Shown one piece after another: positions 6,292 to 10,900 of a stretch of DNA of 14,483 nucleotides. The number at the start of each line of letters is the position of its first letter. Position 1 is the first letter of the stretch. The notes beneath the pieces were generated by a model that was not told the origin of the DNA, did no database searches, and saw only the letters and a program-made list of their open reading frames with translations. The DNA is from an uncultured archaeon (GTDB taxonomy: Archaea; Asgardarchaeota; Thorarchaeia; Thorarchaeales; CAZPUN01): the NCBI GenBank assembly GCA_964589775.1, contig CAZPUN010000015.1, positions 1 through 14,483 on the forward strand, written 5' to 3'. Position numbers and translations under genes: made by a program.

Positions 6292-6485
6292 CATAATGGA
6301 ATTGAGCAATTTGAGAGCCTAGAATGGATTGCGACTTGAATGTACACGGCGCATCCAAAATCATCACCGGAAAAAATTGGGCAATAATAAGATCCTCGCC
6401 GAGCACCACGAGTATGTGCATAAAGGCTACCACAAGGTAGAGTTACGCAGAACCCACGCAATTCAATATAGGGCATATGTCAGAA
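6292..6485 (+). mobile_element. Decayed IS200/IS605-family (tnpB 3' end plus right end) remnant, copy A
   Basis: Frameshifted relic of the TnpB C-terminal motif (atg gat tgc gac ttg aat = MDCDLN, cf. MDRDLNAA); aligns with the reverse complement of 10708-10900; ends in gcagaacccacg...gggcatatgtcagaa. Confidence 0.65.
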
Positions 6486-6537
6486 AATTAAGAAATAATT
6501 TAAATATAATAATATAAAACAAAGAATGGTGATATTA

Positions 6538-7036: not shown

Positions 7037-8530
7037 TTACGCCAATATTTGTCTCAGGAATTCTGGACACTTTTCTACTTTACTTCCAAAAGAGTAGAAC
7101 AAATCATTTACAATTGGATTTTCCAAATTTAGCATATATGCAAAAAATCTTTGTTTGGTAAATACCCGTTGAAGGAATTTGTTTTTACAAAGAAAATCAA
7201 AGACATGCGAATTTCTAATTTCGTCTTTCTTATAGTATTTATTCAATATTTCATAGTTTTTAATAGAGTTACATTTTATCTTCGATTTTCGTATCGTATT
7301 GTATATCAACCACGCTTTACTCTTGGAAAGAGCACCAAATGTTCTAACTAATTTTTGATAATCATGAGCTTTTAATGCATGAAAATATATAATCAATAGT
7401 TGAATTATTGCAAAATGTATTGATTTCAAGTTAATGATCTCTTGTTGCGGTTCATCGATCATATTATTCATTATCTCACTTACTATTTCATCACGGGACT
7501 CAAAAATTAATGATTTCTCAAATGCATTTAATTGTGAGATGTATTTTGTGAATTTTTCAGTGAGTTGTACATATCGGGGTTTATATTTTAGATATTTTGT
7601 AATTTCTTCATAACAAATTGCGGTATCATGCGGGAGAATCCCACCAATCTCATAATAAAGTGGATTCAATGAACCATATATTAAGTAAATTATATTTCTT
7701 AAGAATTTAATTGATTTTTCTACGGATTGGTCTATATTTATACTAGAATCGTTGGACTTTTTTACGAAATGTTTTGTATTCCTACCTTTAATAAAATACG
7801 AATTTGCATGAGTCAATATATAATACATAATATAAAAGTGACTCACTGCAAGTTGTGCCCCAAAAACGATTTTATACTTATTTTGATAATGTTTGTTAGA
7901 TATATTTATTCTATAATATGATTGATTAATATAATTGATTTCAAAATTTTTGTCCATATTAACTTTGTTTATCTCAAAAGTATATGGGTCACTTTTTACA
8001 AATTTTATCGATTTGTCTATTCCATTCAATCCTACGTAAATATTTTGAAATTTCGCAAATTTACGATTAACAAAATCATGAATATGCAATATTTTTTTGT
8101 ATATTGGATCTTCTTCAAGATAATGAATATTAATATCGACCGGGTCTTCGAAATTTATAGAAGATGTTATTAATGCGAAACCTTGAAGGAAAACCTCAAC
8201 AGTTCCACCGATACTTCTTATGTTCTTATCGAACCACAAATTCGGATACTTGGCTTTTTTCAAATCGATATATCCTACAAATGAATATGGTGGAAAGAAC
8301 TTTGCATATATATACTGATTGAACTTGTGAACCATCTCTTTTGTCAAATATCTCTTGCGCCATTTGAACTGTGAAACATTGTTTATATAAAAGTCCTTAA
8401 TCGTATGCGTGAGTGGATCAATCTTATTATAAGTATCAATATTGCATATATATGAAATTGTTTCCTTTAGTTTTCGCCTATCGAGGATATGATCTATCAG
8501 ATTATATATTGTAATTGTCTTAAATAACAT
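7037..8530 (-). CDS. Hypothetical protein, very AT-rich, possible C-terminal winged-helix region
   Basis: 497-codon ORF, too long to be chance in AT-rich DNA; rich in I/K/N/Y/F; no catalytic motif recognised. The C-terminal helix-helix-strand-turn-strand pattern (VFDFLCKNKFLQRVFTKQRFFAYMLN) is only suggestive. Confidence 0.7.
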   Translation of the reverse strand: MLFKTITIYNLIDHILDRRKLKETISYICNIDTYNKIDPLTHTIKDFYINNVSQFKWRKRYLTKEMVHKFNQYIYAKFFPPYSFVGYIDLKKAKYPNLWFDKNIRSIGGTVEVFLQGFALITSSINFEDPVDINIHYLEEDPIYKKILHIHDFVNRKFAKFQNIYVGLNGIDKSIKFVKSDPYTFEINKVNMDKNFEINYINQSYYRINISNKHYQNKYKIVFGAQLAVSHFYIMYYILTHANSYFIKGRNTKHFVKKSNDSSINIDQSVEKSIKFLRNIIYLIYGSLNPLYYEIGGILPHDTAICYEEITKYLKYKPRYVQLTEKFTKYISQLNAFEKSLIFESRDEIVSEIMNNMIDEPQQEIINLKSIHFAIIQLLIIYFHALKAHDYQKLVRTFGALSKSKAWLIYNTIRKSKIKCNSIKNYEILNKYYKKDEIRNSHVFDFLCKNKFLQRVFTKQRFFAYMLNLENPIVNDLFYSFGSKVEKCPEFLRQILA

Positions 8531-8694
8531 TTAGCTCATCTCGAGCAATTGATTATTAAAAAGTAGTTTAGAGTAAAATAAAAATATTTTGACATTTTTG
8601 TAAAAATTACAATAAAAAAGATATTTTATAGAATTTTTGTTTTTTAATCTTTCAAGATTGAATGATACATAAATAAAAATCCATGATAAAAGGC

Positions 8695-8851
8695 TGGAAT
8701 AGGGGCCGAGACTACGAGACGCCCTCACGGGTGTCCCTTCGTGGACCTTGCTTACGCATAGTATTGTTAAGGGCTCAAATCCTTAACCTGTCCCCGCGTG
8801 GGAATTAACTTCCCGCCGGATTATTTACTACTTAGGTTCGCCCCTATTCCA
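8695..8851. ncRNA. Unidentified structured RNA candidate, 157 nt, closed by a 12-bp terminal stem
   Basis: GC-rich island in AT-rich intergenic DNA; tggaataggggc (8695-8706) is the exact reverse complement of gcccctattcca (8840-8851); several internal stems. Strand unresolved; promoter and U-tract placement favour minus. Confidence 0.65.
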
Positions 8852-8872
8852 ATATAATTAATTAAAAACAAC

Positions 8873-8880
8873 TATAAAAA
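8873..8880 (-). promoter_or_regulatory. Putative TATA box for the 157-nt structured element
   Basis: Minus-strand TTTTTATA; TTTATA lies at -28..-23 relative to the first G of the terminal stem (8850), the usual archaeal spacing. The AT-rich background lowers specificity. Confidence 0.45.
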
Positions 8881-9030
8881 TATATTGATAAATCTATAAA
8901 ATTGTAATTTCAAATTATAATAAAAGTCGGTTTTAGCATCTACAAAATAGATTTGACAACAATTTTTTTAGATATTTTAGAAAAATCAAAAACATAACCA
9001 TAAAATTTTATTGAATAACAACGACGTCAC

Positions 9031-9081: not shown

Positions 9082-9161
9082 ATGGGTGTTGGTAGTAGGT
9101 ATTACCAGCCACCATCGCCAGCGGGTGGAAAGATAGGATCCATCCTTCAATTTCACCTCCG
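9082..9161 (+). ncRNA. Two-hairpin GC-rich element, candidate small/antisense RNA
   Basis: gttggtagt (9088-9096) pairs with attaccagc (9101-9109) using two G-U pairs, extended by atgg/ccat; ggtggaa (9124-9130) pairs with tttcacc (9151-9157) using one G-U. The wobbles work only on the plus strand. Confidence 0.4.
9102..9143 (-). CDS. Candidate 13-aa peptide MDPIFPPAGDGGW
   Basis: Perfect GGAGGTGA (plus-strand tcacctcc, 9153-9160) 9 nt before ATG; TAA at 9102-9104; followed by three T6-T7 tracts on the minus strand. Confidence 0.35.
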   Translation of the reverse strand: MDPIFPPAGDGGW

Positions 9162-9433
9162 TATTTTTTATTCATGTAAATATATGCAGGGCATGAGAAA
9201 TTTGTTTAACGTAATTTTTGATTTTTTGAATGTTTTTTCAATCTCAAAGATGAAAATAAAGAAAAATATAGTACTTTCAAAATAAATGATAAAAATTATA
9301 GAAATCATGAATTATCGATACAAAAAATTTCGGGCAACAGGTATGGAAAAAAATTTAATTCTTGATGAAGAAAATTAATTTTATTAAATCATAAGGAAAT
9401 AAAACAATAATGTGCGATATGTAGGAGAATTCT

Positions 9434-10519
9434 ATGATCGGGTGTTTGGAAATCCTCGTGATGATTATTGGGTTAAGGTTCAGAGAATGGATAATTGAGA
9501 ATAGTAATGGAGTTCCACGAACTATGGTGCTAATGGCACACAAACTTGCTAATATGGGTTTCGACTATGTAAGGCAAGTGGGTCTTCATGCTGCGATTCG
9601 TGAGTTAGATGCTCAAATGGTACAAAGTATCGATATATCTATTATTAATGACTTGCTTAGTTTGAAGAATGGCAGGGAGATGCTCGAATGGATAGTATGG
9701 CGTTCATTAATTGAGAAGGAAATCCCGATTCTAGGCATACGTAGGATACAATTAGATGAAGCGGAACGGGAAAATATTTGCACGATTGATGATCTAATAG
9801 ATAAGGGTGTAGTACATCTATTGAATGGAAGCGTTGAAATTCGGACTAATTATTACTTGTTATCTTTAAAGAATGCATTAGGTTTAGACCATATTATGCT
9901 GAAAGACTTGCTGGATATATCCGGTCTAACACGAGATGAGGCATTAGCCTTGAGTAGTTGGCAGGTGAATGTGATCGGTGCTTACTTTGAGATGGCGGTT
10001 GCTCTCGCACTATTTCGCTTATCTCAACAAGGTATCTTTAACCTTGATAGACTGTTTAGCAATTCAAATGAGACAAAAGTAGTTGTTCCGAAATTCGAAA
10101 GGATTGAGAAACTGCCCTTTTATAGTAGTGAGTTAATCAAACCTAATGTGATATATGCAATGCCGAGAGTTAAAGGCGTGGATATCACGTTTAAGGATGT
10201 AGAAGGAAACATGGTTCTCATAGAATGCAAGAACTGGGAGCGAGCCATCTCAAGTCTAGAACTTTCAATAATCCACAGGAATATATTGCAATTCGAGAAA
10301 GAAATTGGCAGATCCGGAATTCACATTCTGGTGACTACATCGCAATTATCCGAAGAGTTGCTAAATCAGGCAAATGAACAAAAGCTATTTGTAATAAACG
10401 AAATGGACCGATTAGTCGGACGAGATATCATGGACTTCTTCGAGCAAGCTCTCCAACGTGCACGAAAAGTTGAACCCCTTATGGTCCGCACTGCCGTGGG
10501 TGGATTCCAAAGTATATAG
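9434..10519 (+). CDS. Protein with C-terminal PD-(D/E)XK (restriction endonuclease/Mrr-like) domain; N-terminus resembles the post-P-loop part of a STAND/AAA+ ATPase
   Basis: GAYFEMAV...GVDITFKD...VLIECKNW gives the E...D...ExK pattern; SNGVPR resembles the GxP(R) motif; AGGAG 7 nt before ATG; no Walker A in the ORF. Confidence 0.75.
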   Translation: MIGCLEILVMIIGLRFREWIIENSNGVPRTMVLMAHKLANMGFDYVRQVGLHAAIRELDAQMVQSIDISIINDLLSLKNGREMLEWIVWRSLIEKEIPILGIRRIQLDEAERENICTIDDLIDKGVVHLLNGSVEIRTNYYLLSLKNALGLDHIMLKDLLDISGLTRDEALALSSWQVNVIGAYFEMAVALALFRLSQQGIFNLDRLFSNSNETKVVVPKFERIEKLPFYSSELIKPNVIYAMPRVKGVDITFKDVEGNMVLIECKNWERAISSLELSIIHRNILQFEKEIGRSGIHILVTTSQLSEELLNQANEQKLFVINEMDRLVGRDIMDFFEQALQRARKVEPLMVRTAVGGFQSI

Positions 10520-10611: not shown

Positions 10612-10707
10612 CATAATTCCGAAATTAAAATACGAGGTTTTTGCAAATTTGCTGTTTAAAACAATTCTTTGTATATAATATTGATTATATCATACACAGT
10701 GATCTTT

Positions 10708-10900
10708 TTCTGACATACTCCCCATATTAAGATGTGAGGATTCTGCGTATAGTCTATCTTGTCATAACAATTTCGAGCATACACTCACCGTGTTCATGTG
10801 AGGAAACGTTTGTTACCGCCGCGATTTTCTTTGAGGAACTTAGAAATCAATGAATTTCAAGTCTGGATCCATTCTAAATCATCAAATTACTTGATTTATG
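10708..10900 (-). mobile_element. Decayed IS200/IS605-family (tnpB 3' end plus right end) remnant, copy B
   Basis: Minus strand reads ...tagaatggatccagacttgaa...cctcacatgaacacggtgagtgtatgc...acaagatagactatacgcagaatcctcacatcttaatatggggagtatgtcagaa: GAAT, then hairpin, then AGTATGTCA, the usual right-end layout. Homologous to copy A. Confidence 0.7.

Follow-up and report, generated by a model that had tools for sequence, protein, structure and literature searches.

On sequence evidence, positions 8695-8851 of the window, by which we mean the whole 14.5-kb contig analysed here (14,483 nt), hold a real, selected, structured RNA whose family is absent from Rfam and confined to a narrow Asgard clade. 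As to what kind of gene this is, we lean towards a stand-alone gene for a small non-coding RNA, read from the minus strand, the product of which would serve as a stable ribonucleoprotein scaffold, possibly together with the orphan protein encoded beside it. To the left of the RNA lie a 497-aa ORF (7037-8530, minus strand), a cyclophilin gene and a radical-SAM/SPASM cassette. The 880 nt that separate the 497-aa ORF from the ORF at 9434-10519 are non-coding, and the RNA island is found in the middle of this gap.

Composition and predicted fold of the island

The first-pass annotation of this DNA, which was made from the letters alone, described an abrupt GC-rich island, and the base composition bears this out. 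The stretch 8695-8851 is 52-53% GC and is embedded in flanking DNA of 17-25% GC; by segments, the GC fraction is 0.53 at 8700-8849 and 0.17 both at 8550-8699 and at 8850-8999, and the island is well above the genome mean of 35%. The perfect 12-bp closing helix that had been proposed is present, formed by 8695-8706 and 8840-8851, and the remaining stems listed at that time (acct/aggt, tagta/tacta, gttaagg/ccttaac, gggaa/ttccc, tgc/gca and gacgccc/gggtgtc) all lie exactly where they had been placed. The same applies to the GUAA and GUGA loops of the minus strand, the box TTTTTATA (8873-8880) and the UUUU run (8688-8691), each of which was found in the sequence.

The more general claim, that the island specifies a multibranched structured RNA, gains support from shuffle z-scores, from covariation of the acct/aggt stem and from the existence of a homologue in a second lineage. 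The minimum free energy (MFE) of 8695-8851 is -67.6 kcal/mol on the plus strand (z -6.5, with none of 200 shuffles as good) and -64.3 kcal/mol on the minus strand (z -5.0 against shuffles). Inclusion of the nested long-range helices acct/aggt and tagta/tacta carries a penalty of just 2 kcal/mol above the MFE.

Read on the minus strand, the 157-nt core (8695-8851) is predicted to consist of the closing helix and three successive three-way junctions bearing four hairpins. The 5' strand of the 12-bp closing helix, P1 (8840-8851), pairs with 8695-8706 and is perfectly Watson-Crick in the window. P2 (ACCU, 8834-8837, pairing with AGGU at 8745-8748) closes the second junction and reads ACCC/GGGU in the relative, while P3 (UAGUA, 8826-8830, pairing with UACUA at 8759-8763) closes the third, is invariant in both lineages, and is present in the MFE structure of the relative's protein-strand sequence as well as in the consensus fold. 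The P4 hairpin (8794-8819) has 3 + 7 bp, a GUUAA loop and pair probabilities of 0.97-0.98, and is followed by the conserved junction GGGGACAG. P5 (8766-8787) is a hairpin of 7-8 bp with a loop that is not conserved, being 8 nt long in the window and 6 nt in the relative. The P6 mini-hairpin (8749-8758) carries a GUAA loop, replaced by GUAAA in the relative, and P7 (8712-8744) carries a GUGA loop, replaced by GUAA, and includes three of the compensatory pairs described below. The predicted fold, ending in a 12-bp GC-rich helix and containing three junctions and two GNRA-capped hairpins, suggests a molecule that is compact and nuclease-resistant.

A second lineage and compensatory change

An exhaustive HMMER search with the 497-aa protein among 1.84 billion representatives returned one homologous cluster (492 aa, 38% identity), the members of which are found on five contigs: two from NCBI assemblies (GCA_053940065.1 and GCA_053994715.1) and three from Logan. 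Model R1, for which the window sequence was the only input, gave a full-length match on all five of these contigs at 125-126 bits. The relative's RNA is located 145 nt upstream of the orphan-gene homologue and in the same relative orientation as in the window. Synteny on the gene side is accompanied by protein identities of 94-95% for the cyclophilin, 82% for the active radical-SAM protein, 86% for a 126-aa protein and 72% for a 555-aa protein, and the nearest named homologues of the neighbouring genes are assigned to 'Promethearchaeota archaeon', in keeping with an Asgard origin of the DNA. At the nucleotide level the RNA, with 82% identity between the lineages, is better conserved than any other stretch of the locus; the corresponding values elsewhere are 78.5% for the cyclophilin gene (50% at third codon positions), 70% for the radical-SAM gene, 59% for the spacer between RNA and ORF, 56% for the 497-aa gene and 55% for the 150 nt upstream of the RNA.

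The covariation check that had been proposed for this RNA yielded five true compensatory pairs between the window and the one related lineage. One is in P1 and another in P2 (both U-A to C-G), one is in the outer part of P7 (G-C to A-U) and two are in its inner part (A-U to C-G and C-G to A-U). In addition, P1 contains a one-sided change in the relative, from G-C to G.U on the minus strand. When the sequences are aligned by the model, the proportion of paired cells is 96%; sliding the partners by 1-3 columns lowers it to 33-44%. Four apparent double changes in P5 were discounted because they represent an identical stem shifted by one base. Change is less frequent in unpaired columns (6 of 46) than in paired ones (23 of 110); between the lineages the junction GGGGACAG is invariant and the P4 arm almost so. 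Since there are only two lineages, the covariation rests on one comparison, to which no R-scape-type statistic can be applied.

Wider searches returned nothing, whether by BLAST with the RNA against 40 relatives, with models R1 and R2 against 86 other genomes of the same class or order, with model R2 under laxer filters (E<=5) against 39 relatives, or with model R2 against 150 genomes sampled from the phylum. Two conserved-block patterns had no match in metagenome and genome collections, nor did the first of them in viral collections. The loci of the next-closest cyclophilins (62-65% identity) carry neither the RNA nor the orphan gene. To date, both the RNA and the orphan gene have turned up only in these two lineages.

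The strand of the RNA

Comparison of the two sequences makes it quite likely that the RNA is made from the minus strand, which is the strand of the 497-aa gene. The relative's RNA folds to -63.5 kcal/mol on the protein strand and to -52.7 kcal/mol on the other, and the three one-sided changes in the relative all produce G.U on the minus strand and A.C on the plus strand. On the minus strand the P7 loop is of the GNRA type in both lineages (GUGA in the window, GUAA in the relative), and both have TCAATATRTTTTTATA 21-22 nt before P1 and CCAGCC and AUUUUU after it. Counter to this assignment, two conserved U.G pairs of the plus strand, in outer P7 and in P4, become C.A on the minus strand, which avoids them only by adopting alternative registers, namely a bulged A in P4 and a 9-bp P7.

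The opposite arrangement, in which the RNA would be transcribed from the plus strand and diverge from the 497-aa gene, seems improbable to us. The first-pass annotation had pointed to some G-U pairs that favour the plus strand, and it was right to do so: three such pairs occur in the window sequence and two of them are kept in the relative. The window MFE is also 3 kcal/mol better on this strand, and the UCAC and UUAC loops would suit the UNAC tetraloop class. However, the first 80 nt or so downstream on the plus strand lack a U-tract, and there is no upstream box at conserved spacing, the distance to ATACAT differing by 6 nt. Moreover, the relative's equivalent strand contains three A.C mismatches and its fold is 11 kcal/mol less stable, and the consensus fold is 9 kcal/mol worse on the plus strand (-53.5 against -62.6 kcal/mol).

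Promoter and terminator signals and predicted transcript ends

The minus strand carries a putative BRE/TATA block, TCAATATRTTTTTATA, at 8873-8888, of which the TATA box TTTTTATA occupies 8873-8880, 21 nt from the first base of the closing helix. All 16 positions of the block are kept in the relative (one as R) with a spacing to P1 of 21-22 nt, in a spacer that is only about 55% identical between the lineages. It is not a common motif of the genome, in which there are 4 loose matches, and tRNA genes of the same genome have TATA-like boxes at similar distances. At the other end, the 3' tail and putative terminator (8675-8694) comprise GCC (8692-8694), U4 (8688-8691) and U5 (8675-8679), and the CCAGCC and the AUUUUU run that follow the closing helix are preserved in the relative. 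U-tracts act as the terminator signal of archaea according to one published account (PMC8716108).

The promoter and terminator signals claimed at the outset therefore recur, as a minus-strand TATA box and a U-tract, at fixed spacing in the second lineage. Generic features of a stand-alone archaeal RNA gene, BRE/TATA before the 5' end (usually by about 25-30 nt) and oligo-U after the 3' end, are present at the level of sequence. From these signals we infer that 8851-8695 is transcribed. Its start would fall on the first bases of the closing helix, some 22 nt beyond the conserved BRE/TATA box, and its end at the U-tracts 4-20 nt past that helix, giving an RNA of some 160-180 nt.

Known RNA families and repeats

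The first-pass annotation could match the island to none of the RNA classes that it considered, and a search of the whole window against Rfam 15 agrees, with no match at the gathering score. At E<=10 over 8600-8950 (351 nt) there were chance-level matches only, of 12-17 bits against thresholds of 60-70, and the weak matches on the relative's copy were to other families than those on the window copy. ARAGORN predicted no tRNA gene in the window, RF00005 gave no local match at E<=10 with lax filters, and of the 40 places marked genome-wide by the tRNA model at E<=10 none is on this contig. The models for 5S rRNA, RNase P RNA and SRP RNA (RF00001, RF00373 and RF01857) each scored above their cut-off on other contigs and not here. 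Guide RNAs of the C/D and H/ACA types were rejected, as neither strand carries a RUGAUGA/CUGA or ACA box at a suitable position.

Dispersal of the element in many copies had been named as the observation that would speak for a MITE instead. In the 2.16-Mb genome, which is 96.8% complete, BLAST and the covariance models R1 and R2 found one copy of the RNA, and it is therefore not a MITE or other dispersed repeat. Nor does the closing helix make it one of a family, since the 11 long perfect closing helices in the genome are all unrelated.

Smaller motifs and one further class of RNA were also considered and rejected. Watson-Crick pairs, and not the tandem G.A pairs of a K-turn, border the 3-nt bulge in P7. 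The sequence CCUAAG resembles half of an 11-nt GNRA receptor, a reading that we set aside because its U pairs normally and covaries. For a type III antitoxin RNA, no direct-repeat family has both copies inside 8695-8851, and the neighbouring 497-aa protein has no ToxN-like match.

A known RNA in disguise, for example a tRNA that is permuted or has several introns, or a fragment of rRNA, is in our view hardly credible. The thought is prompted by the recovery of only about 35 tRNA genes in the genome by ARAGORN and the tRNA model, many of them intron-bearing, from which it follows that some tRNAs may be hidden. For the RNA described here, however, ARAGORN and the tRNA model at E<=10 find not even a partial match, there is no T-loop or D-loop consensus, and those loops that approach the size of an anticodon loop vary in length and sequence between the lineages; for rRNA, no model matched. 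As regards the tRNA genes themselves, ARAGORN alone listed only 34 in the genome and mislabelled several that contain introns, and nearly all of those checked (for example C12:13384 and C43:10220) have CCA directly 3', apparently encoded in the genome.

The adjacent orphan gene

Downstream of the RNA on the same strand is the orphan gene (7037-8530) for a protein of 497 aa, a possible protein partner of the RNA. The ORF has its own conserved TATA-like sequence, TTTTTATT, at 8577-8584, about 47-56 nt before the ATG. No profile of Pfam, NCBIfam, PHROG, PADLOC or PDB matched the protein. With a pI of 9.3-9.4 it is basic, ranking at the 90th percentile or higher among the long ORFs of the genome, and several patches of it are invariant, for example YPNLWFDKN and YLIYGSLNP. 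The GC content of the gene is 27.8%, against 35% for the genome. AlphaFold gave a pLDDT of 34 from the single sequence and 32 with a 4-sequence alignment, too low for a usable model. The protein is 36-38% identical to its sole known homologue; for the neighbouring proteins the values are 72-95%.

The gene is either very fast evolving or of foreign origin. Its sequence is compatible with a protein that binds nucleic acid and is possibly foreign or related to defence, although such compatibility proves nothing. Look-alikes of the protein in the atlas were rejected, with scores below 0.9 that were apparently driven by composition, as was kinship with the 467-472-aa neighbours of distant cyclophilins, to which the orphan protein is unrelated. 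Separately, we note a 13-mer, ATTTTTACAAAAA (8590-8602 on the minus strand; L006, about 492-505), which is common to both lineages in the otherwise unconserved spacer between RNA and orphan gene, and the distance of which to the ATG differs between them.

It could be supposed that the RNA is a cis-acting 5' leader of the 497-aa gene, a riboswitch or attenuator in which binding of a ligand or protein sets the degree of read-through past the U-tracts. In both lineages the RNA shares the strand of the gene and precedes it by 145-165 nt, an interval that contains U-tracts, and in complexity its architecture equals that of large riboswitches. Even so, we judge a leader to be an unlikely explanation. 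P1 is a perfect GC-rich helix of 12 bp, whereas typical switching P1 helices are much shorter. There is no conserved expression platform, the 59% identity of the spacer being that of the background; no riboswitch family matched at E<=10; the gene has a TATA-like box of its own; and antisense pairing between the RNA and the 5' region of the orphan gene was no better than in shuffles. Taken together, the unconserved spacer, the separate TTTTTATT, the 12-bp P1 and the lack of RNA-mRNA pairing favour an independent, stable, trans-acting RNA.

The upstream side of the locus and a possible module

Synteny with the relative stops exactly at the RNA promoter, where the relative has an N6 DNA methylase gene (L010, 3-1292) that runs off the contig end. 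On this side of the RNA in the window, the ORF at 9434-10519 is a truncated gene corresponding to the C-terminal 60% (residues ~240-605) of proteins of about 605 aa with ATPase_2 and Mrr_cat domains, at 47-49% identity. Homology stops at about 9409 and the frame changes near 9465-9476; the part that the gene lacks is the N-terminal ATPase. Within the non-coding gap there is also a second and smaller GC-rich island at 9082-9164 (more than 52% GC in 60-nt windows), which has no counterpart in the shorter spacer of the relative. Further out, 6300-6487 and 10706-10896 are two inverted copies of one element, 73-80% complementary. At the site of the left copy (6300-6487), the cyclophilin and radical-SAM genes of the relative stand only 40 nt apart, so that this copy is an insertion in the lineage of the window.

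The setting brings to mind a mobile or defence module in which the RNA would serve the 497-aa protein as guide or adaptor, the models for such a layout being the retron ncRNA, the IS110 bridge RNA, the IscB omega RNA and the type III antitoxin RNA, each of which is found just upstream of its protein. By analogy with these, a module of this kind has, we think, a small chance of being correct. The order of elements, from promoter to structured RNA to terminator to protein gene, is as it should be; the protein evolves very fast (36-38% identity as against 72-95% for neighbours) and its gene is low in GC (27.8% in a 35% genome); and synteny breaks right upstream of the RNA, with a truncated ATPase-Mrr gene in the window and an N6 DNA methylase in the relative. 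Yet the protein shows no sign of a reverse-transcriptase, recombinase, RuvC, HNH or nuclease domain and has no YxDD motif, and the RNA has no tandem repeats within it. It is single copy with stable synteny on the gene side, and apart from the non-conserved P5 loop no variable, guide-like segment was seen.

Possible function and significance

We return to the reading of a stable scaffold. The RNA would act in trans, as the RNA part of a ribonucleoprotein to which it contributes a stable, protein-binding framework, and the likeliest partner would be the co-inherited, very basic and fast-evolving 497-aa orphan protein encoded just downstream. That this particular protein is the partner is possible from its sequence but on the whole doubtful. 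The whole locus is syntenic, so the adjacency of RNA and orphan gene is not independent evidence of a functional link.

Multi-junction structured RNAs with conserved junctions and GNRA loops are rare in archaea, and once their function is solved such RNAs usually turn out to be ribozymes, riboswitches or the cores of ribonucleoproteins. There is a modest chance that the RNA belongs to a new RNA-protein system or to a new catalytic or ligand-binding class. It is about as speculative to suggest that the RNA and the basic, fast-evolving orphan protein together make up an undescribed module of this sort, confined to a small Asgard clade and lying at the edge of a variable, restriction-type region. 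If either is true, the forms that it might take include a defence or mobile-element function that is scaffolded or guided by RNA, or, for the RNA alone, a new class of ribozyme or ligand-binding RNA. No known group is more closely related to eukaryotes than the Asgard archaea, whose non-coding RNAs are, to our knowledge, almost unexplored. With a predicted gene (promoter, ends and fold), a second lineage and a candidate partner in hand, this RNA is ready for experiment. With so narrow a distribution, in two lineages, it is of limited general importance, unless it works by a new mechanism.

Comparison with known systems

Retron msr-msd RNAs share with the RNA described here a length of about 150-200 nt, closure by terminal inverted repeats, a position directly upstream of a protein and a location beside restriction-type genes. 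They differ in that the neighbour here has neither an RT domain nor YxDD, and is divided from the RNA by a putative terminator and an apparent promoter of its own. A retron ncRNA was rejected, there being no RVT family at E<=0.01, no PADLOC match and no YxDD in the 497-aa protein. The IS110 bridge RNA and the omega RNAs of IscB and TnpB are likewise structured RNAs of about 150-200 nt beside a protein gene, and putative TnpB remnants occur nearby in the window. Here, in contrast, there are no DEDD, RuvC or HNH domains, the RNA is single copy in conserved synteny, and it has no similarity to the TnpB remnants; with no DEDD recombinase, IscB or TnpB domain adjacent, these RNAs too were rejected.

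The large orphan structured RNAs raiA and ROOL came to light through comparative genomics. Unlike them, the RNA of this study is archaeal, much narrower in its distribution (two lineages) and absent from Rfam 15; it resembles them in having a complex multi-junction fold that is supported by covariation and a function that is not known.

Y RNA and YrlA, the scaffolds bound by Ro60, offer a further comparison. The RNA has no Rfam Y_RNA or YrlA match and no tRNA-like module, and a 14.6-bit YrlB match falls in the spacer downstream of the RNA and not on it. Identity with a Y RNA was rejected, as the genome has no TROVE/Ro60 (PF05731) match, while the search did recover positive controls, in 2 of 14 control genomes. 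In general design, the likeness to these scaffolds lies in a length of about 100-160 nt, ends that are paired in a long terminal helix followed by a U-run, and a branched interior.
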